From contig CAYQPU010000023.1 of assembly GCA_964419615.1 (NCBI GenBank), forward strand, positions 1 to 28,117: DNA of 28,117 nt, read 5' to 3'. Shown piece after piece: positions 3-19,655 of the stretch. The position numbers were made by a program, and so were the translations under genes. Origin of the DNA: an uncultured Methanosarcinales archaeon. GTDB taxonomy: Archaea; Nanobdellota; Nanobdellia; Woesearchaeales; JAGVZT01. How positions within the stretch are numbered: the stretch's first letter is position 1; each line of letters opens with the position of its first letter. Under the pieces are notes generated by a model. The model did no database searches. It saw only the letters and a list, made by a program, of their open reading frames with translations, and was not told the DNA's origin.

Positions 3-425
3 TCTTTATTACTTGGAGCTAAGCATGTTTTTTTTGTGGATGTTGATAAGGATGCAATTAAGATTTGTAAGAGTAATCTTGAAATGTTAGAAGAATTTGA
101 TACAAATAGTGTGCATTTTTTTAACGAGAATATTGGTAAGTTTGATAGAAAAGTAGATGTTGTTATTCAAAATCCACCTTTTGGTGTTCAGAATAAGCAT
201 GCAGATAAGCCTTTCTTAAAAAAGGCTTTTGAGATTTCTGACGTTGTTTATAGTCTACATAAGATTGAAAGTAAAGGTTTTATTGAGAAATTGAGCAAAG
301 ATGAGGGTTTTAGAGTGACTCATTTGTTTGAGTTTAGCATGCCAATAAAGCAGACTATGGGCTTTCATAAGCAGAGGATTAGAAGGATAAGGGTTGGGTG
401 CTGGCGATTTAAAAAGATTTATTAG
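3..425 (+). CDS. METTL5-like SAM-dependent N6-adenine RNA methyltransferase (5' end outside window)
   Basis: Frame is open from position 3 (SLLLGAKHVFFVDVDKDAI). It contains VDVVIQNPPFG (NPPF motif IV) and the C-terminal VYSLHK...F.MP....FHK pattern typical of archaeal METTL5 homologues. Confidence 0.85.
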   Translation, partial: SLLLGAKHVFFVDVDKDAIKICKSNLEMLEEFDTNSVHFFNENIGKFDRKVDVVIQNPPFGVQNKHADKPFLKKAFEISDVVYSLHKIESKGFIEKLSKDEGFRVTHLFEFSMPIKQTMGFHKQRIRRIRVGCWRFKKIY

Positions 426-447
426 ATTATTTAGATTCCCTTCTCTT

Positions 448-981
448 ATGAAAGATCGTATTGGAGCTATTTTAGGATTAGCAGTTGGATTAACAGCGTT
501 TAATTTTACTGTAAAAACTTATGCAGAACATATTGGTATGCAGGTTAATTCTCATCCTTTGCAAAGTGCTATAGAATTACAGGATGATTCTATAATTAAT
601 GTTTCAGATAATCTTGATGATGGAACTTTGGTTACATATTCAATTATTACAGAGAAACTTACTTCTTTACCTTTTGTTGATTATTGGACAATCACAGAGA
701 GTATATGGATAAGAATTGATGATAAAGTGATTGCAGTTAGAGATTATGATATGGATGGTGAGCCTGAAGAAGTGCAAGTTCTAAGGAAGTGTGATGATTA
801 TGACCCAATACTATCTATTTTGGTAAGGCCAAGTGGAAGAATTGTTGTTGATGGTTATTTAGGTGGTTTGTCAGCTGAAGAATGGCTTGAGTTAGGTGAA
901 CAATATTGGGATGAAGCTGAGGATTCTTTTGTTGAGGATTATAGAAAAGACGAATTTGGTTATGAAATTTGGGAGCTTTAG
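448..981 (+). CDS. Hypothetical membrane-anchored acidic protein
   Basis: ATG at 448 is followed by a hydrophobic N-terminal segment (IGAILGLAVGLTAFNF) and an acidic, probably extracellular domain with a YDMDGEPE loop. The ORF-track start at 394 overlaps the upstream gene and is unlikely. Confidence 0.7.
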   Translation: MKDRIGAILGLAVGLTAFNFTVKTYAEHIGMQVNSHPLQSAIELQDDSIINVSDNLDDGTLVTYSIITEKLTSLPFVDYWTITESIWIRIDDKVIAVRDYDMDGEPEEVQVLRKCDDYDPILSILVRPSGRIVVDGYLGGLSAEEWLELGEQYWDEAEDSFVEDYRKDEFGYEIWEL

Positions 982-996
982 ATTTAATAACAGAAA

Positions 997-1139
997 GCTC
1001 CACCTGGCCGGTTCCTGAGCCAGTTTGTTAACTTTCACAACAAATAATGTTCTCACATATTAGAGAATTGACAAACTGTACCTTTCTTAGTCATATGATG
1101 ATTTTGGTCTCACTCACATAAATCAGGCCTAGGTGGAGT
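997..1139. ncRNA. Candidate structured non-coding RNA or MITE-like element
   Basis: Terminal pairing GCTCCACCT-GGCC (997-1009) with GGCC-T-AGGTGGAGT (1126-1139). Internal helices CAGTTTGT/ACAAACTG (1021-1028/1071-1078), TTCTC/GAGAA (1050-1054/1063-1067) and TGATTT/AAATCA (1099-1104/1120-1125). It is intergenic and followed by a T-rich tract. Family not recognised. Confidence 0.45.
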
Positions 1140-1169
1140 GTTTTTATCTTGCTTTTGTTTAAAAACAGA

Positions 1170-1183
1170 AAACAATTTAAATA
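1170..1183 (+). promoter_or_regulatory. BRE/TATA promoter of rpoL (leaderless)
   Basis: A-rich BRE followed by TTTAAATA (1176-1183), 22 nt before ATG 1206; no SD motif. Confidence 0.55.
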
Positions 1184-1205
1184 TCAGCTTTTTACTTGTT
1201 TAAAT

Positions 1206-1481
1206 ATGGAAATCAAATTTGTTGAGGATAGTAAAAATAAGATTATTTTTGAGATTAAAGATGAAGGTCATACTCTTGCTAACTTGCTTGAAAAGGAGCT
1301 TTGGGATGATCCAGATATTAAAGCAGCAGGCTATCATGTTGAACACCCTTTAGTTGTTGTGCCACGTTTTGTGGTAGAGGTTAAAAGAGGTGCTGATGCC
1401 AGAAAAGCTGTTGAAAAGGCTGTTAAGAGGTTAGTGGCCAAAAACAAGAAATTCAGAACAGCTTTTAAAGCTGCAAAATGA
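1206..1481 (+). CDS. rpoL: DNA-directed RNA polymerase subunit L (Rpo11)
   Basis: FEIKDEGHTLANLLEKELWDDPDIKAAGYHVEHPL matches the Rpo11/RPB11 signature (E.HTL.N.L...L......AGY...HPL). ATG at 1206. Confidence 0.93.
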   Translation: MEIKFVEDSKNKIIFEIKDEGHTLANLLEKELWDDPDIKAAGYHVEHPLVVVPRFVVEVKRGADARKAVEKAVKRLVAKNKKFRTAFKAAK

Positions 1482-2017
1482 AAGATTTAATTGATCTTGC
1501 TAGATGTTCTATTGAAAGTGTTTATTTAGGTGAAGAGGTTAGTGTAAGCAATGATGTTAAAGTTAAGTTCTCTGATAATCAGGGTGTTTTTGTAACTTTA
1601 ACTATTAATAATGAACTTAGAGGATGTATTGGTTATATTGAGCCGGTTTTTCCATTGTTTGAAGGTGTGATTCGAGCCGCAAGAGCAGCTGCTTTTAAGG
1701 ACCATAGGTTCCCTAGGCTACAAAAAGAAGAATTTAAACATGTGAAGATTGAGATCTCTGTTTTAACAATTCCTGAGTTAATTAAGGTTGAAAAGCCTGA
1801 AGAGTATTTGGAGAAAATAAAGATTGGCAAGCATGGACTGATTATTAAAGGTTCTAGAGGTTCTGGATTGTTATTACCCCAGGTTTTTACTGATTATAAT
1901 AGTACACCTAAACAAGCTCTAGAGATGACTTGCCAAAAGGCAGGAATGTCAGCAGATGCTTGGAAAGAGCTTGAGAATAAGATTTATAGTTTTGAAGTTG
2001 AGATTGTTAAGGAGTGA
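1478..2017 (+). CDS. AMMECR1-domain protein (AmmeMemoRadiSam system protein A)
   Basis: GVFVTL...LRGCIG, AAFKDHRFP, GKHGLII, GLLLPQV and TCQKAG motifs. ATGA overlap with rpoL. Confidence 0.92.
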   Translation: MKDLIDLARCSIESVYLGEEVSVSNDVKVKFSDNQGVFVTLTINNELRGCIGYIEPVFPLFEGVIRAARAAAFKDHRFPRLQKEEFKHVKIEISVLTIPELIKVEKPEEYLEKIKIGKHGLIIKGSRGSGLLLPQVFTDYNSTPKQALEMTCQKAGMSADAWKELENKIYSFEVEIVKE

Positions 2018-2982: not shown

Positions 2983-3030
2983 CATTTCAATTAAGAAAAA
3001 TTAATATATTCTTGAATTTGATTTTTGTTT

Positions 3031-3681
3031 ATGGATGTTATTATCTTTGATGTTGATGGAGTTCTTGGTGATTTTACTAAGCTTAAACATTTAAGGGATA
3101 TTGCTCATATTCAGAATGTTGCTTTAAAACATAATATTGACTTTGAAGCTGCTAAAGAATTGTTTTTTTCTACAAAAAAGAAACTAAAGGAGCAAGATAA
3201 ACATTCAACTATTGATACAATGATGGAGCTTGGTTTTTCCCGAGAAGAATATTATGAGAGTATTAATTCTGTTCCTGTTGAAGGAAATATTGTATTGACT
3301 GAACATGCAGTTGAAGTGTTAGAAAAACTATCTAAAAAATATAATATAGTTGCCTTAACAAATACCCCACATGATTCTAATAAAAAAGTTTTAGTTTATT
3401 TGGGGCTTGACAAATTTGTTCATGCATTGTATTGTATTGATACTCATGATTATATTAAACCTTCAAGTGAGATTTTTAAGAGGATAATGGATGATTTTAA
3501 TGCAGGAAAAGGAATATCTGTTGGTGATTCTGTTGAAAAGGATTTACTGCCTGCAAAAGAGATTGGATTGAAGACTGTTTACTTTGGAAAGTATAAAGAT
3601 AAAATTGAGAATAGAGAGGGTATTGATTTTGAGATTGATGATTTAAGAGAGTTGTTTAACATCCTTGGTAGTCAAGGATAA
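3031..3681 (+). CDS. HAD-superfamily phosphatase (subfamily IA)
   Basis: Motif I FDVDGV, motif II LTN, motif III KP, motif IV GDSVEKD. ATG 3031 lies about 22 nt after TTAATATA. Confidence 0.9.
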   Translation: MDVIIFDVDGVLGDFTKLKHLRDIAHIQNVALKHNIDFEAAKELFFSTKKKLKEQDKHSTIDTMMELGFSREEYYESINSVPVEGNIVLTEHAVEVLEKLSKKYNIVALTNTPHDSNKKVLVYLGLDKFVHALYCIDTHDYIKPSSEIFKRIMDDFNAGKGISVGDSVEKDLLPAKEIGLKTVYFGKYKDKIENREGIDFEIDDLRELFNILGSQG

Positions 3682-4540
3682 CATCTGCAACCTGACTAAT
3701 ATCTCCTATTTGCATGTATTCATAAGTGTCTCCATCAATTTCCATTGTAGCTAACTTTGGAGCTGAACCATCATTTAGCACGTGGATTGCTTGCACACCA
3801 TATTTCAAAGATGCCTCAATATCCTTTCCTAAATGATCTCCAATGTAACATAAGGATCTTGGTTGATCAAAAGCAGTTGATACACTATGTATTTTCCGGA
3901 ACCCTTCTGGACTTGGTTTTTTTTCTGAAACATTTTCTGCGCAGAGTATTTCATAATTTGTTCCTGTTGATCTTGAAAAATCTCCAAGATCTAGTCCAAG
4001 AGCATGAACTACCTCTTGAGCTGTTCTATAGGTTTCTGTTGTTAAGATTCCCAATTGTTTACCTGCATTAACAAGTCTTTCAACTGAATCTACTAGATCT
4101 TGATTGTGACTCAGTATACTTTCAAAAGCAATATTCTCAAGCATTTCATGTAGGTATGTTGATTGTGTTCCTAGTTCATTTGCAAATATCTTACCATTTG
4201 ATTTGTTTTTTTCCAACAATCTATTATACTCTGCAATAATAAGTGGCTTAATATCTTTGATATGCTCAAGTAAATTCCCATCTTTTATAGCATCTTTATA
4301 TAGAACTATTGAAGTGTTAGCAATATGTTCAAGTAAAGGTATATTTTTATCTCGTCCTACGCTGATATCTAAAGAATCAAATTGTGATAGTGCCCAAAAT
4401 GCCATATATTTGAAAAAATCATGAGAATCTTGAATTGACAAACCAGATTTTGGATCTTCTAAGCTTTTATTATATAATGTTCCATCTACATCAAACCAAG
4501 CTTCAGTGATGATTTTTGGATCAAATTTTATCACACTCAT
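3656..4540 (-). CDS. HAD-superfamily phosphatase with enlarged cap
   Basis: FDVDGTLY, ILTTE, KKPSPEGF and IGDHLGKDI motifs, with a long helical cap between motifs I and II. Confidence 0.85.
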   Translation of the reverse strand: MSVIKFDPKIITEAWFDVDGTLYNKSLEDPKSGLSIQDSHDFFKYMAFWALSQFDSLDISVGRDKNIPLLEHIANTSIVLYKDAIKDGNLLEHIKDIKPLIIAEYNRLLEKNKSNGKIFANELGTQSTYLHEMLENIAFESILSHNQDLVDSVERLVNAGKQLGILTTETYRTAQEVVHALGLDLGDFSRSTGTNYEILCAENVSEKKPSPEGFRKIHSVSTAFDQPRSLCYIGDHLGKDIEASLKYGVQAIHVLNDGSAPKLATMEIDGDTYEYMQIGDISQVADVILDYQGC

Positions 4541-4615: not shown

Positions 4616-4631
4616 GCAAAAGATTTATATA
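4616..4631 (+). promoter_or_regulatory. BRE/TATA promoter of the kinase-like gene pair
   Basis: AAAAGATTTATATA about 27 nt before ATG 4658. The same AAAGATTTA(T/A)ATA motif recurs at about 17967 and 24500. Confidence 0.55.
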
Positions 4632-4657
4632 GTCCAAATACTATTATATTGTGTAGG

Positions 4658-6550
4658 ATGAATCTCCAACAAGTCCTAGATAAGATGAGACTATCAAAAG
4701 TTAGATTTCCTTCTATTGATAATGTTGCTAATTTTGATATACAAGTAGAGTATCCATTAAAACCTGAGTTCCAGGATTCTGTGCTTGAGCCTATTGCAAA
4801 AGGTGTTTTCAGAGAAAAAACTCCTAATGGAGAATTATATTTTTTTGAGGATTTAGATTCTTATCTTAGATTTATGGATGATGAAGAGTTCCAGAGATTG
4901 ATTCATGTTAATGATTTAAGGTATTTTGATGATTTTGATGGCACAATAAATCCTATTGTAGATGATATCAGACGTGCAGATCCAGTAATGGGTACTGAAA
5001 ATGGTATAAGGGATTTTGTTAGTGAGAGAATATTAAAACTACAAAATACAGTTGTTAGCCATACTGTTTATGACGTTATACCATGGCTAACTACAGGTAG
5101 ATCTGGAGCACAATTAGGTGCACACAGATACGAGTTCAAGAACCCAAATTCTAAAAGAGAAAAAATTTCAACACATGATACTGTCAAAAAGAACAACCAT
5201 AGTGCACTAATGAATGAAATTGAATATGATATTCACATTTCTATGCCTGATGAGATAAGCACAGTTCATATGTTGATCAATTTTGGGATATTTTTTGATG
5301 GACATGTAGATTTTTCAGAGGGTTTTTCTACCCAGATATCCAATGATTCCAATGGTGACCCTATTAAAGATACACTTGCTGATGTGGCGCAAAATGGTGT
5401 TTTTGGTGAATATGATACAAAGGAATCAAGCAGGTTTACTAAAGCCATGCTTCATGCATTCAGGCAAAAGACTATGATATTTGGATTATTAAATCAAGAA
5501 GGATTTATTTCTGACAACAGAAAAGAATATTCACGAAGATTCAAGTTTGCTGATAGTCTTGCCACTTCATTTCCAGAACTTGTTACAGAAATCAGTGGAC
5601 GGGAAATCCCAGACAAAAAGAAAGATCCCAAAACATATGGTATGGTTATTGAAGATTTGGGATTGAGTCTTCATGCAGACGATTTTATTGAAGCTCAAGA
5701 AGGTCTTTTTTCAAGTAAGATGCTTTCATCTACAGGAATAAGTGATCCTAGATTCTTTTTAGCTTATAATAGAACACTTGGTGCCAAAATAGCTATGCTT
5801 GTTTCAGAATTGGGAGTTTGGACCAAAGATGAGTTTCCAAGAAACAGAGTTGTAGATAATGAAGGAACCACATATGCTCTTGATTTTTTGCCTTCATTTA
5901 CGTTGCCTCAAATAGATGATTCTTTTATGTATGATTGTGCAGCTATGGGTTTTGATGAAGACCTTATTGAAAGGTTTGTTAGAGCCACTTATGTTTTTAA
6001 TCGGATTGTTGGAGAACACCTTGAAAAAGGTGGGGTACTAAAGGATGTTCCTTTAGTGCCTTTTTATTTAGAAGATTATTTAGTTAATGGTAGAGGAGAA
6101 GAGAACTTGCCTTGGGTAGAAGAAACTAATAGATATTATGAAGTTTTTAGATTTGCAAGGCACCACAGGAACGTACTTCAAAGAGAACATTGCGCTAGAG
6201 AAGATAATCCAGATGGTGTTCAGCATTATGAGACTATAGCTTTTGATTCTATGGAGTATATTATGAACAATGTTGGTGAATTTTGGACTCCAGAAGAACA
6301 AGCACAGCATGTTGAAGAATATCATGTTACAATAGAAGATGACTTGATGACTGTTGCTGAGTACTTGCATCCAATTAGAGCAACTGAACTAGAAGAATTA
6401 AAACAAGTTGTAAGGGTTCCTGAATTAGAGGCAGTTTTAGAAACAAGTAGAATTACAGAATTAAGACCTGCAAATCAACCAGTCGCAAGGTATCCAGAAT
6501 ATGCGGAAATAATCCCTGATTACATACAAAAAGAGGTTGCATTAAGATGA
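4658..6550 (+). CDS. Large protein: HAD-like N-terminal motif plus divergent APH/choline-kinase-like phosphotransferase domain (paralogue A)
   Basis: DFDGTINPIVDD (about 4931) and TTGRSG in the N-terminal part. Kinase-like elements: KDTLADV (hinge), YNRTLGAKIAML, catalytic loop WTKDEFPRN (about 5825), YALDF (5882) and IDDSFMYD. Clear paralogy with the next gene. Confidence 0.55.
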   Translation: MNLQQVLDKMRLSKVRFPSIDNVANFDIQVEYPLKPEFQDSVLEPIAKGVFREKTPNGELYFFEDLDSYLRFMDDEEFQRLIHVNDLRYFDDFDGTINPIVDDIRRADPVMGTENGIRDFVSERILKLQNTVVSHTVYDVIPWLTTGRSGAQLGAHRYEFKNPNSKREKISTHDTVKKNNHSALMNEIEYDIHISMPDEISTVHMLINFGIFFDGHVDFSEGFSTQISNDSNGDPIKDTLADVAQNGVFGEYDTKESSRFTKAMLHAFRQKTMIFGLLNQEGFISDNRKEYSRRFKFADSLATSFPELVTEISGREIPDKKKDPKTYGMVIEDLGLSLHADDFIEAQEGLFSSKMLSSTGISDPRFFLAYNRTLGAKIAMLVSELGVWTKDEFPRNRVVDNEGTTYALDFLPSFTLPQIDDSFMYDCAAMGFDEDLIERFVRATYVFNRIVGEHLEKGGVLKDVPLVPFYLEDYLVNGRGEENLPWVEETNRYYEVFRFARHHRNVLQREHCAREDNPDGVQHYETIAFDSMEYIMNNVGEFWTPEEQAQHVEEYHVTIEDDLMTVAEYLHPIRATELEELKQVVRVPELEAVLETSRITELRPANQPVARYPEYAEIIPDYIQKEVALR

Positions 6551-8727
6551 CTCAACCATCAATAGATACAGTTGTATGTCCCTTGGATGATCCTAATTTT
6601 GTTAGGGGTTTTACTCATACTGAAGATGATAGATTATTCGGGTTACATGTTATGCCAACCTTAGATGAAGAAATTCAGTTAGCGACAAGGGCATATGAAG
6701 TAGGTATTCAACCTACAGCTGCAATCTTTTTTCATTACATTCATACAATTACTATTGATAGGTTGGAGACTGAATTAAAAGGACAATTTGGAGACAACAT
6801 TGTTATGCTCTATGATGATATGCCTATTATTGCTTATCTGCTAATTAAAGGTCAGTCAATAGCGTGCAGAAAAGTAGATGAAATTGAGATGAAAGCTGAT
6901 CTGATTAGACCAACTGTTGGTACCAATAGAGATGATTTGCTAAAAAAAGGTAATGTTATAGTAGAACCCACAAAGAATGAAGGTAATCTATATCATGTTG
7001 ACTCTTGGCAAGGATTTTTAGATCTATTAGAAGAATGGCCAGACAATACTTCTTTAATATACTCTCATGAACCAGGTAATCCATCCAGAGATGGCAAAAT
7101 TTTAAGTGAAGATTTATTTATTGCTGCTTCAAACATTGCACTGAAGCAACCTGTTGCTTGTGACACACAAGGATTTGAGGATTGGCATGAGTATCAAGAA
7201 ATTATTAGACGTGAAAATGCATTGGTAATTACTAAAACTGAATCAGGTAGACCAGATATAACAAGTTCAAGAGCTGGTGCAACTGAGGTAGGTTCAGGTT
7301 TTACTGCTCAAGTAACACAAATGAATTTTGCACCCTTTGTAGCAGATAATACATGGCATATTGGAATTGACAGTCTTATACATCAGAAAACAAATTTCCA
7401 TCCCCTATTAGATAGATATGAAGTTGAAACATTAGATATTGCTAGATCTGTAGTTAATGTACCTGATGCTGAATGGAAAAACCATGTTGAGATTGAAGGT
7501 GAGATGGTTAAGATATCTACTGGTGTGCAAATGCAGACTGTTATTGGTCCTACTTTGTTTGAAATTATGACAAACTATCAATTTGTTGATTATGAGAATG
7601 ATCAAGAATCTAAAGATCTGTTAGATGGGATTTGGGCTGCTGTTATTGATCAACAAAAAATCAATTATGCAATTTCAAACCAGATAACTGCAGATAAAGA
7701 GAGGAGTTTTTTATTATCTGGATACCATATTACCAAAGCAGTTGTTGATTCCCTACCTGATATGGTTGAGAATGTTTTAGGCTATCCTGTTCCTAAGAAA
7801 GATACAAAAGAAGAAAAAGCTGCATATCAGACGTGTGTGTTTGATTTGATGCGGTTAATGCTTAATAATCAGTCTGACATAATTAAAGTCCAAGTAAAAG
7901 GTTTAGGAGCAGATGCTGCACCAGAATTACCTGAAACAGAAATAGCTACTAGATTACATTACACCCTTAAAGCTGCAAGTTCTTTAGAATTAAGAGGCGC
8001 TGAGAGAATGGAATTTATACAAGCTTATCAGAATACTTTTGGCAGGTTGCTTTCAGATTCAATGATCCAATCCGGTCGCTGGATTAGTGATAGATATGGT
8101 CATAATTCAAAGTTTGTAGGGCTTTCAATAGATTTATCTAATGATGGAAAACCTACCATTCAAAGGGATGATAATGGTAATGTTCAACTTTATTCTTATG
8201 ATATGCTTACAAGACCAGGTCTGTGGGAGATTGATCTGAGCTTTTTGTTAGATGGACCATCCAATCTTCCGGTTGGGATGAAAGAAAGATTATTTGACGC
8301 TGCAAGATATTTGCAGATAGCTTTAACTCACGATGATATTGATTTTGAATCAACTGAATCAAAAGCTAAGAATTATGTTTTAACTGGAAACAGACAAAAC
8401 TTGGATAGGTTAATGACTAGTGAAGCACATTTTGCCTATCATAATGTTTTAGAGTGTGCAAGGGTACATAGAAACATACTTCAAAGAAAACATGAAACTA
8501 AGGAGGGTGGCGCTCATAAAGGTCATTATGAAGATTTAGCATTTGAAGCTTTTATGCGAGTTTATGAGAATGCAGAATCAATTTGGAATCATGCAGGTGT
8601 TTTTGATGATTTAAACACAGTTGCTAGGTATTTTTTTGGAGCAAGTGATTCTTTTGACTCAGATCTAATTAAAGCTGCAGCGCAAGAAGCGGACTTAACA
8701 AATCAAATACCATTTTCTGAGTATTAA
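6547..8727 (+). CDS. Large protein with divergent APH/choline-kinase-like domain (paralogue B)
   Basis: Gly loop EVGSGFTAQV, RYEVETL...VNVPD, VQMQTVIGPTL, YQNTFGRLLS, catalytic loop WISDRYGHN (about 8086), YSYDM and IDLSFLLD. It shares ARxHRNxLQRxH...HYExxAF and DDLxTVAxY with paralogue A. ATGA overlap with A. Confidence 0.55.
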   Translation: MTQPSIDTVVCPLDDPNFVRGFTHTEDDRLFGLHVMPTLDEEIQLATRAYEVGIQPTAAIFFHYIHTITIDRLETELKGQFGDNIVMLYDDMPIIAYLLIKGQSIACRKVDEIEMKADLIRPTVGTNRDDLLKKGNVIVEPTKNEGNLYHVDSWQGFLDLLEEWPDNTSLIYSHEPGNPSRDGKILSEDLFIAASNIALKQPVACDTQGFEDWHEYQEIIRRENALVITKTESGRPDITSSRAGATEVGSGFTAQVTQMNFAPFVADNTWHIGIDSLIHQKTNFHPLLDRYEVETLDIARSVVNVPDAEWKNHVEIEGEMVKISTGVQMQTVIGPTLFEIMTNYQFVDYENDQESKDLLDGIWAAVIDQQKINYAISNQITADKERSFLLSGYHITKAVVDSLPDMVENVLGYPVPKKDTKEEKAAYQTCVFDLMRLMLNNQSDIIKVQVKGLGADAAPELPETEIATRLHYTLKAASSLELRGAERMEFIQAYQNTFGRLLSDSMIQSGRWISDRYGHNSKFVGLSIDLSNDGKPTIQRDDNGNVQLYSYDMLTRPGLWEIDLSFLLDGPSNLPVGMKERLFDAARYLQIALTHDDIDFESTESKAKNYVLTGNRQNLDRLMTSEAHFAYHNVLECARVHRNILQRKHETKEGGAHKGHYEDLAFEAFMRVYENAESIWNHAGVFDDLNTVARYFFGASDSFDSDLIKAAAQEADLTNQIPFSEY

Positions 8728-9589
8728 TCAAGTAATGTATTACCACCAATTCTTTTGATTTTTTTGTGTTGAATAATAATAAACCTTCATTTTTTACTTG
8801 TTTTTGTATTTGAGCAAACTTAACTGCATCCTTTGCTTTGAAGTCAAAGAAGATTGAGGAATATAGTCCAATAGTTTGATTTAGCTTTTCAAATAATTCA
8901 AAGGTTTCACTTGAGAGGTTGATGTTTTTATTTTTGTCTTTTTCTAAGAATCTGCATAGATCCCTTAACTCATCTGCTACTTTTTCTAGTTGCTCTACTA
9001 GAGCATACATGATTGCGGTCTTATCTGGCTCTTTGTAGCCATGTTTGTTTAAGCTTCTTCTAAGATAATGCGTTAGTTTATTATTTGTTTTTTCTAGATC
9101 CTTAATGTTTGATATTGTTTCATAGTCTTTTTCCTTTAAAGCTGTTAGTAAATCTTCTCCCATTACCTTTAGTAATAATATTGTTCTCCTAAGAATAGAA
9201 TCAAATTCTTTGTCAGATGCTTCTGTTATGCTTCTTACAACACATTTGTTTTTTTCTTGTTTGACTATTTCATAGGTCATTGCTTCTAGATTAACTGCAG
9301 CTTCTATTTCCCTTAATTGCTCTTTTGAGTTAAAGTTAACTGTGATCTCATCATAACCACGTTTGTACATTGCATCAAATGCTCTTTTTACAATAGGCCC
9401 GAATTCAGTTGCATTAAAGATTCCTTTGTGTTCTGGACTATCTCCTTCTCGTAAATTTATTGTTAATTGGGATCCGTTTGGTGTGACTTCAACTTCATCC
9501 CCCTTCTTTACATTATTAGCTCTAGCCCATTTTAGTGGCAAAGAGACTACATAAGTTGTATCAGCTAATTTGATGATTTTACGTTTCAT
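8669..9589 (-). CDS. phoU: AbrB-PhoU phosphate uptake regulator
   Basis: N-terminal AbrB/SpoVT motif (RKIIKLADTTYVVSLPLKW...VKKGDEV), AMYKRGYDEI, and PhoU-like helical repeats (LEKTNNKL, LEKVADE). Typical archaeal architecture. Confidence 0.85.
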   Translation of the reverse strand: MKRKIIKLADTTYVVSLPLKWARANNVKKGDEVEVTPNGSQLTINLREGDSPEHKGIFNATEFGPIVKRAFDAMYKRGYDEITVNFNSKEQLREIEAAVNLEAMTYEIVKQEKNKCVVRSITEASDKEFDSILRRTILLLKVMGEDLLTALKEKDYETISNIKDLEKTNNKLTHYLRRSLNKHGYKEPDKTAIMYALVEQLEKVADELRDLCRFLEKDKNKNINLSSETFELFEKLNQTIGLYSSIFFDFKAKDAVKFAQIQKQVKNEGLLLFNTKKSKELVVIHYLINTQKMVFDLLSPLLALQL

Positions 9590-18667: not shown

Positions 18668-18692
18668 ATAATATGGAATAATACTATTGAGT

Positions 18693-19655
18693 ATGACTCA
18701 AAACATCTATGGAATAGGCAATCCAATCGTTGACATCCTTGTCAGAGTTGAAGATTCTTTACTTAATGAATTAAATCTTCCAAAAGGGATTATGAGTTTG
18801 GTTGACCAGGAAAAACAGAGTGCTATTAAAAGTTCTATTAGATTGCTTGATAAAACAGTTATGCCTGGTGGAAGTTGTTGTAATACTATGATTGGAATTT
18901 CTAATCTTGGAGGGGAATCTACTTTTCAAGGTGTGGTTGGTTTTGATGATTACTCAAAAATTTTTGAGGAGAAACTTAGCCAGTTTGGAGTTTTATCACA
19001 TTTGGTTAAGAATAAAGGAGATACTGGTTCAAGTGTTATTTTAGTTACTCCCGATGGTGAAAGGACTATGAATACTCATCTTGGTGTGTGTGGTTTGCTG
19101 GCAAGAGAACACATTCTTAAAAAAAGTATTGCACAAAGCAAGATCCTTCATACAACAGCCTATGCTCTAGACACTTTTCCAGATGCAACTAGGTATGCAA
19201 TAGATATTGCTAAGCAGAACAATGTTTTGGTTAGTTTTGATGTTGCTGATCCTTTTTTAGTTAAACATCAAAGAGATATTGTTAAAGAGATTGTTAAGCA
19301 ATCTGATATTGTTTTTTTAAATAAAGAAGAAACCAAATTATTCACTAATAAAGATCCTATTGATGCAATTAAACAGATCTCGAAGCTATGTCCAAATGTT
19401 GTTGTTAAATTGGGAGCAGACGGATGTTTAGTTGGCGAAAATGGAAATGTTCTAAGAATTAAAGGATTCCAAGTTAAAACAGTTGACACAACTGGTGCGG
19501 GAGATATGTTTGCTGCTGGTTATTTATTTGGGATAGTTAATGGTTATTCTAAAAAAAGATCTGCAAAGATAGGGAATTTTGTGGCATCAAGAGTTGTTGA
19601 GAATATGGGAGCAAGACTTAATTATTCTTTAAAAGAATTAGTTAAAGATCTCTGA
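18693..19655 (+). CDS. PfkB-family sugar/nucleoside (adenosine-like) kinase
   Basis: GIGNPIVD, PGGSCCNT, GERTMNTHLG, VFLNKEE and DTTGAGDMFAAG (PfkB signature). Confidence 0.92.
   Translation: MTQNIYGIGNPIVDILVRVEDSLLNELNLPKGIMSLVDQEKQSAIKSSIRLLDKTVMPGGSCCNTMIGISNLGGESTFQGVVGFDDYSKIFEEKLSQFGVLSHLVKNKGDTGSSVILVTPDGERTMNTHLGVCGLLAREHILKKSIAQSKILHTTAYALDTFPDATRYAIDIAKQNNVLVSFDVADPFLVKHQRDIVKEIVKQSDIVFLNKEETKLFTNKDPIDAIKQISKLCPNVVVKLGADGCLVGENGNVLRIKGFQVKTVDTTGAGDMFAAGYLFGIVNGYSKKRSAKIGNFVASRVVENMGARLNYSLKELVKDL

Follow-up and report, generated by a model that had tools for sequence, protein, structure and literature searches.

Two overlapping genes in the genome of an uncultured woesearchaeal archaeon probably encode members of a rare protein-kinase-like (PKL) family that falls within the branch of aminoglycoside phosphotransferases (APH), choline kinases and sugar kinases, retains the full catalytic residue set, and is tied to a convergently encoded regulator with AbrB and PhoU-like domains. 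The genes lie on a 28,117-nucleotide (nt) stretch (contig CAYQPU010000023.1, positions 1 to 28,117; guanine-cytosine content ~33%) of assembly GCA_964419615.1 (64 contigs, 1.48 Mb, 99% completeness); this whole stretch is hereafter referred to as the window. The two paralogous open reading frames (ORFs), A and B, and the regulator gene are located as follows:

4658–6550, + strand: ORF A (paralogue A), 630 amino acids (aa) from the ATG at 4658; N-terminal extension at residues 1–129, PKL core at residues ~130–580
6547–8727, + strand: ORF B (paralogue B), 726 aa; N-terminal region at residues 1–210, followed by the PKL core
8669..9589, − strand: AbrB/MazE and PhoU-like regulator gene, 306 aa, sharing 59 nt (8669–8727) with B at the 3′ ends of both genes

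Paralogy, predicted fold and catalytic residues

We first consider the relationship between A and B. The two proteins align by BLASTP with E = 1e-13 and 23% identity over 390 columns (A 239–573, B 333–696), and B matches a family profile built without A and B with 97 bits (E = 7e-32, single comparison) from the Gly-rich loop to the C-terminal motif. These alignments establish A and B as true paralogues throughout the core. An earlier reading of the window, made from the sequence only, had described two translationally coupled paralogues aligning over ~400 C-terminal residues: the ATGA overlap between the ORFs and their paralogy were both recovered, and every motif pair it quoted was found in place, while the similarity proved to extend beyond these C-terminal ~400 residues to the entire core. 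The same reading called the proteins giant, which is an overstatement for 630 and 726 aa.

Library searches returned no significant family for either protein in Pfam, PHROGs, NCBIfam or PADLOC, including no Pfam match at E ≤ 10, and a search of PDB sequences with the single sequences and the family profile yielded a best E value of 0.42, to an unrelated RNA polymerase III subunit. It is in this sense, of lacking a match to any Pfam, NCBIfam, PHROG or PADLOC model or to a PDB sequence, that the family is undescribed, as had been proposed. A six-frame search of the whole source genome with PF01636 was likewise empty; 13 of 14 control genomes matched.

The predicted structure, on the other hand, could be placed. 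For the core of A (window 5045–6547, 501 residues), an AlphaFold2 (AF2) model built on a 12-sequence family alignment (A4) reached a mean predicted local distance difference test score (pLDDT) of 74.4 and a predicted template modeling score of 0.75, with the C-lobe mostly at 80–97 and the first three strands below 55. The model displays a bilobal PKL fold, i.e., an N-lobe sheet with helix alphaC and a helical C-lobe, and its secondary-structure map places the family motifs in canonical PKL order (model numbering): beta1 (7–15), TTGRSG (16–21), beta2 (23–31), beta3 ending in Lys (40–49), alphaC with its Glu (54–66), the hinge (~105–112), a long helical region (126–230), alphaE (235–256), W-T-K-D-E-F-P-R-N (259–267) and L-D-F (279–281). 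Foldseek matches in the PDB were APH, choline-kinase, methylthioribose-kinase and related small-molecule kinases (E 2e-3 to 3e-2, probabilities mostly 0.9–1.0), the sole exception being PI3K-alpha at rank 49 with a low probability, itself a kinase-like fold. VIA-align gave the best score to 3csv, a putative aminoglycoside phosphotransferase (Z 17.6; 271 residues, 3.4 Å), with NahK, corramycin phosphotransferase, choline kinase and 5-methylthioribose kinase at Z 13.5–14.7 and the whole set, maltokinase included, starting from Z 12.6. In an exhaustive scan of 48,161 representative chains, independent of Foldseek, the top 50 were all PKL; APH-like small-molecule kinases scored Z 9–17.6, and RIO1, Bud32 and eukaryotic protein kinases ~Z 8. 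Overall, AF2, Foldseek and VIA-align agree on a predicted PKL structure of the APH/choline-kinase branch, as the sequence-only reading had suggested. Neighbors of A in the ESM Atlas, a language-model result used here as a lead only, pointed in the same direction: among the nearest 30 clusters, all 7 that carry a Pfam family were PKL (Kdo, WaaY, APH, RIO1; 0.92–0.93), and the other 23 had no common family. A RelA_SpoT link for B was discarded, its ESM Atlas match to RelA_SpoT-containing clusters reaching only 0.80, i.e., chance level.

The motifs that carry the assignment map to the window as follows:

5090..5107, + strand: A, Gly-rich loop TTGRSG between predicted beta1 and beta2, from the model secondary structure and the family alignment (pLDDT below 50)
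5183..5230, + strand: A, beta3 Lys K178 (VKKNN) and alphaC Glu E189 (NEIEYD), kept in 10/10 full-length members
5819..5887, + strand: A, catalytic loop W-T-K-D391-E-F-P-R-N396 and DFG-type D409 (ALDF), kept in 10/10
6155..6232, + strand: A, C-terminal motif A-R-H-H-R504-N-V-L-Q-R-E-H, then H-Y, from alignment and model
7261..7476, + strand: B, N-lobe with Gly-rich loop (TSSRAG...GSGF), Lys in HQKTN, Glu in DRYEVE and a VP motif, in columns common to all members
8080..8205, + strand: B, catalytic loop W-I-S-D-R-Y-G-H-N and Asp in YSYDM, with a ~20-residue insertion between them, from the alignment
8458..8532, + strand: B, C-terminal motif A-R-V-H-R-N-I-L-Q-R-K-H, then H-Y, from the alignment

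Conservation was scored in alignment A4, in which 10 of the 12 sequences, including A and B, are full-length members. All 10 have the beta3 Lys, alphaC Glu, catalytic Asp and Asn, and DFG-type Asp, at pairwise identities of ~20–27%. In the model of A, K178 stands at the end of the predicted strand 40–49 and E189 inside helix 54–66, while D391, N396 and D409 lie just past alphaE, in or between strands 258–260, 268–270 and 276–278 (block mean pLDDT 79–91). The D-x4-N loop and following Asp that had been read in both ORFs are therefore conserved across the full-length homologues, and the Gly loop, alphaC-like Glu and VP motif reported for B fall in columns shared by all members. Neither protein has the H-x-D-x4-N form of the loop (Brenner motif): the replacement of the His by W-T-K-D in A and W-I-S-D in B was confirmed, and the position three residues before the catalytic Asp holds W in 7/10 members and V, I or L in the other three. 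In B, the Arg that follows the catalytic Asn and the second Asp of a DD-x-F motif are lost; its insertion site also carries long insertions in two other members.

R504 of the C-terminal motif is invariant in 12/12 sequences, with N505 found in 10/12, and the motif sits in model helices 358–385 and 389–408 (block mean pLDDT 87–95). This motif had been taken, together with a large helical insert, for an addition to the fold. Its helices lie within the range that aligns to the normal APH-like C-terminal lobe, so that the motif is not simply an added element. The helical region between hinge and catalytic loop is longer than in APH-like kinases.

Overall, the fold and chemistry would be of a well-known kind. 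The APH-like small-molecule kinases used for comparison, i.e., 3csv, NahK (4ocj), corramycin phosphotransferase (8agy), choline/ethanolamine kinases (2ig7, 6yxs), 5-methylthioribose kinase (2olc) and maltokinase (5jy7, 4o7o), share with the A/B family the bilobal fold and helical C-terminal lobe (Z 12.6–17.6 over 256–303 aligned residues), as well as the beta3 Lys, alphaC Glu, D-x4-N loop and metal-binding Asp. The A/B family differs from them by having no detectable sequence similarity to Pfam APH or any other Pfam family, a W-x-x-D loop in place of H-x-D, a hinge-to-catalytic-loop helical region of ~110 residues, its own invariant Arg in R-N-x-L-Q plus an H-Y motif, N-terminal extensions of 130 to ~750 residues in some members, and a near-obligatory pairing with an AbrB-PhoU gene.

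Distribution and the convergent AbrB-PhoU gene

Members of this family are rare. When A was searched exhaustively with phmmer in a set of 1.84 billion representative proteins, six matches were recovered: P0003 (492 aa), P0005 (578 aa, cut by a contig end), P0008 (442 aa), two fragments, and one fragment of A itself. Six-frame profile searches of genome samples recovered more members:

Class sample, alignment A1: 2 of 401 genomes
Order sample, alignment A2: 10 of 401 genomes (including G696, an unpublished genome whose sequence was left unused)
Phylum sample, alignment A4: 14 of 401 genomes

In the phylum sample, all matches fell within the same order except one weak match (E = 7e-4), and the family occurs in ~3% of the order's sampled genomes. 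Matches were also scarce among close relatives of the source, with no six-frame profile match in the same-genus genome G020 and only G563 matching among the other sampled genomes of the same taxonomic family. A word-indexed homologue search found none for B and, for alignment A1, only A itself among the matches listed. Back-translated pattern scans confirmed no relative in metagenomes and one fragment in genome contigs, on L015.

The most consistent feature of these members is the gene they face. A convergent AbrB-PhoU gene of ~300 aa is found in 16 of 17 readable family contexts, with the other flanking genes varying, and the coding 3′ ends overlap by 11–59 nt in nine of the 10 contexts read in detail. 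The sequence-only reading had called for a check of neighborhood conservation but had missed the AbrB-PhoU gene itself; it is the pairing with this regulator that is conserved. The contexts are:

L008 / L009: convergent AbrB-PhoU, with GAPDH flanking the opposite side; partner and window regulator share 30% identity (E = 4e-36)
P0008 contig: convergent AbrB-PhoU, no other neighbor noted
G541: convergent AbrB-PhoU, alanyl-tRNA synthetase upstream
L015: convergent AbrB-PhoU, no other neighbor noted
G104, G551, G695, G665, G065: convergent AbrB-PhoU, no other neighbor noted
Seven further members: convergent AbrB-PhoU in six

The partner genes combine an N-terminal SpoVT/AbrB/MazE domain with a PhoU-type helical domain. 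For the regulator of the window, Pfam matches were MazE_antitoxin (1e-5) and PhoU (1.6e-3), the latter below the Pfam cut-off (19.2 vs 23.5 bits); across nine partner proteins, AbrB/MazE was detected in 8 (best 5.8e-6), PhoU in 5 (best 1.1e-5) and PhoU_div in 2. A tree of AbrB-PhoU proteins groups six of the nine regulators that neighbor the family in an exclusive clade (SH-aLRT, a likelihood-ratio branch support, 99), and the neighbor label requires 4 changes on this tree vs 7.3 in shuffles, which together indicate that kinase and regulator genes have largely been inherited jointly.

AbrB-PhoU genes occur in 77/101 genomes of this order and are multicopy, with up to 20 matches per genome and 5 in the source genome. 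Of 31 other copies, taken from order-wide loci L039–L066, ~10 face further kinase-like ORFs, which belong to several families, in convergent orientation, and four face PHP-type phosphoesterases in the same way; the remainder have an unrelated convergent gene or none. These other PKL-like neighbors, known here from their sequences alone, resemble the A/B family in the convergent arrangement and in readable D-x4-N and Asp motifs, e.g., D-[AS]-H-P-x-N ... I-D type motifs in ORFs of L042, L052, L054 and L058, or H-G-D-I-H-x-x-N in P0014, which has a borderline Pfam APH match (9.4e-5). They differ in having no significant profile match to the A/B family, and several carry the canonical His-containing APH catalytic loop.

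A PhoU-domain protein associated with a kinase is also found in bacterial PhoU-PhoR phosphate signaling (Pho regulon). PhoR is a histidine kinase of unrelated fold, to our knowledge bacterial PhoU has no AbrB DNA-binding domain, and no pst genes flank the locus within the window; the analogy is conceptual only. In Thermococcus kodakarensis, the SpoVT/AbrB-PhoU regulator TK2245 is listed among chromosome-associated proteins (PMC7325993), which fits a DNA-binding role of AbrB-PhoU proteins; beyond this listing, we found nothing in the literature on a link between AbrB-PhoU proteins and kinases.

Proposed activity and alternative readings

Given that the complete catalytic set is retained, the most likely activity of the family would be Mg-ATP-dependent phosphoryl transfer to a hydroxyl group of an acceptor. 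The substrate pocket of APH-type kinases is generally attributed to their C-terminal lobe; in A and B, the corresponding pocket would be provided by the C-terminal helical lobe carrying the invariant Arg of R-N-x-L-Q and the H-Y motif. Because small-molecule kinases are the closest structural matches of the predicted model, a small molecule is favored as the probable acceptor. The kinase gene, co-inherited with the convergent AbrB-PhoU gene and usually overlapping it at the 3′ end, would further be functionally tied to this DNA-binding regulator: the kinase may act on the regulator, produce its ligand, or simply be regulated together with it. A broader and more speculative scheme, which we regard as rather doubtful, would have PKL and AbrB-PhoU genes form a signaling module specific to the order, in which kinases of several families phosphorylate the regulator or make or consume its ligand, the 3′ overlaps add antisense control, and A and B represent a step toward a heteromer.

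Several observations weigh against assigning A and B to this kinase branch. No profile method ties the family to kinases (best Pfam APH E = 3 among 12 members scanned), and hhalign of the family profile against the single sequences P0014 and P0015, PKL-like proteins from neighboring genomes, gave no signal. The N-lobe strands are of low confidence (pLDDT 33–53 for model residues 1–50), which leaves conservation and predicted topology as the basis for placing the Lys and the Gly loop. Only the core of A was modeled on an alignment, the single-sequence AF2 model of B being uninformative (pLDDT 34), and the convergence of K, E, D, N and D in three dimensions is predicted from topology. Finally, both proteins lack the His that normally precedes the catalytic Asp by two residues. 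Together with the shallowness of the 12-sequence alignment, the low N-lobe confidence and missing sequence-level link could mean that the kinase look is an artefact of structure prediction and that the proteins adopt another fold. We consider this extremely improbable, because the C-lobe is mostly predicted at pLDDT 80–97, the best match reaches Z 17.6 with an unbiased scan whose top 50 are all PKL, the invariant residues fall exactly on PKL catalytic positions, and the independent language-model neighbors with a family are all PKL. That B, more likely than A, is a pseudokinase serving as scaffold or regulatory partner, possibly in a heterodimer, is a further reading that could apply to one or both copies. 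B is the faster-evolving copy, with the second-longest branch (1.86), lacks the two residues named above (the post-Asn Arg and the second Asp of DD-x-F), and bears the ~20-residue insertion that separates its catalytic loop from the DFG-type Asp; the ATGA overlap also suggests matched production of A and B. It nonetheless keeps all five core residues, two other members have long insertions at the same place, and the gene occurs singly wherever else its context was read, which makes this reading unlikely.

The regulator raises two other alternatives. A and B may be protein kinases that modify the AbrB-PhoU protein or another protein, i.e., a signaling rather than a metabolic pair. The near-obligatory, co-inherited pairing with a DNA-binding regulator is in line with this, as are the pairing of other AbrB-PhoU paralogues of the order with other PKL-like genes and the presence among the structural matches, at lower Z, of APH-fold proteins such as YihE (Z 10.0), a type that phosphorylates proteins. 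Yet the top matches are all small-molecule kinases (Z 12–17.6), RIO, Bud32 and eukaryotic protein kinases remain at ~Z 8, the genes converge and hence are not co-transcribed, and AbrB-PhoU paralogues also adjoin PHP phosphoesterases and unrelated genes; a protein substrate thus appears possible but not favored. Alternatively, a kinase toxin could be opposed by an antitoxin of the AbrB/MazE fold in a toxin–antitoxin-like or defense module. The N-terminal domain of the partner does match the MazE/AbrB antitoxin fold, the family is patchily distributed (none in the same-genus genome, ~3% of the order's sampled genomes), and AbrB-PhoU genes reach 20 matches per genome. Against this stand the convergent orientation with no operon, a partner of ~300 aa with a PhoU-like domain, and the library searches: PADLOC gave no match at E ≤ 1 for A, B or the AbrB-PhoU partner, and the sole toxin–antitoxin-related NCBIfam match scored 21.7 against a cut-off of 190 bits. 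Such a module is in our view very unlikely, and an intact small-molecule kinase of the APH-like branch is still the reading that we prefer.

Under this preferred reading, what is new is a family that sequence libraries do not see, with an altered catalytic-loop signature and its own conserved residues in the substrate lobe, restricted so far to one archaeal order and converging near-obligatorily on AbrB-PhoU genes, for which no description was found in the literature. Small-genome archaea of the DPANN type encode many proteins with no assignable function; here, an orphan archaeal family is placed in the kinase superfamily with an intact predicted active site, and the link to the regulator offers a testable pair. 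If kinase and regulator were a true signaling unit, this would represent a kinase–regulator logic not described in archaea and might explain the AbrB-PhoU expansion. The seed alignment also allows annotation of the family in other genomes.

The tandem duplication and surrounding genes

Sequence features around the two ORFs are consistent with joint expression:

4624..4631, + strand: TATA-like box TTTATATA, read from the sequence, ending ~27 nt 5′ of the ATG of A
6533–6550, + strand: A–B junction, with GAGGT at 6533–6537 and the ATGA overlap at 6547–6550 (start of B overlapping the stop of A)

The GAGGT lies 9 nt 5′ of the ATG of B, and A and B are probably co-transcribed and translationally coupled. 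The TTTATATA box would be a putative archaeal promoter, possibly giving a leaderless or short-leader A–B transcript; an in-frame TTG at 4649 is also possible as an alternative start of A. The tandem duplication was seen in the source genome only. Since other members with context read are single genes, a heterodimer cannot be a family-wide requirement, although an A–B heterodimer is possible. B rather than A occupies the ancestral position beside the regulator gene. The core tree unites A, B, P0003 and P0005 (86/91) and leaves their internal order unresolved.

The N-terminal region of B is homologous to the N-terminus of P0005 (E = 1e-5); no such homology to the P0005/B type was detectable for the shorter N-terminus of A, and residues 1–150 of A had no Pfam or PDB sequence match. 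A stretch at residues ~90–106 of A (F-D-D-F-D-G-T-I-N-P-I-V-D-D, window 4925–4975) was considered as a HAD/trehalose-phosphatase motif and rejected as probably a chance resemblance, because the aligned stretches of B and P0005 have no aspartates and the ~30 residues left before beta1 are too few for a HAD domain. Much longer N-terminal extensions occur in G541 (~750 residues, largely helical by eye; L014:6438-9911, −) and G104 (~320 residues; L031:5796-8030, +), neither with a family assignment. Two members look degraded. The L015 fragment (L015:198-665, +), on a contig labeled ‘Nanoarchaeota archaeon’, is a 155-aa C-lobe remnant that starts near the DFG-type Asp beside an intact AbrB-PhoU gene and may be a decayed or frameshifted copy; the G749 member (L073, G749:C24:28835-29749, −), the sole one with no convergent AbrB-PhoU neighbor, has an in-frame TAA and may likewise be a decaying copy.

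Elsewhere, an archaeal origin is indicated by window genes for AMMECR1 and a short triosephosphate isomerase of archaeal type, and by an RNA polymerase L-type subunit encoded in the syntenic locus L010. This contig, which carries P0005 (GCA_043812815.1, JBDRLT010000013.1), has methyltransferase, RNA polymerase L subunit, AMMECR1 and PfkB genes in common with window positions 394–2017 and 18687–19655; there, unlike in the window, the PfkB sugar kinase lies directly upstream of the kinase-like gene. Two HAD-family hydrolase genes are found just upstream of A (3025–3681, +; 3656–4540, −), and HAD hydrolases also occur <7 kb from the homologues in L008 and the P0008 contig, a proximity that may be coincidental in HAD-rich genomes.

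The source genome (G000) holds a second convergent pair of a kinase-like and an AbrB-PhoU gene, the former split over two contig ends (C14:54-1256, −, and C1:8-196, +) and the latter at C1:225-1244 (−). The split gene is the orthologue of P0015 from a same-genus genome (54% identical), and C14 and C1 therefore probably join. P0015 itself displays FAAKY, D-I-W-I-Y-N and I-D-F-D motifs and a weak ABC1 match (E = 0.021).

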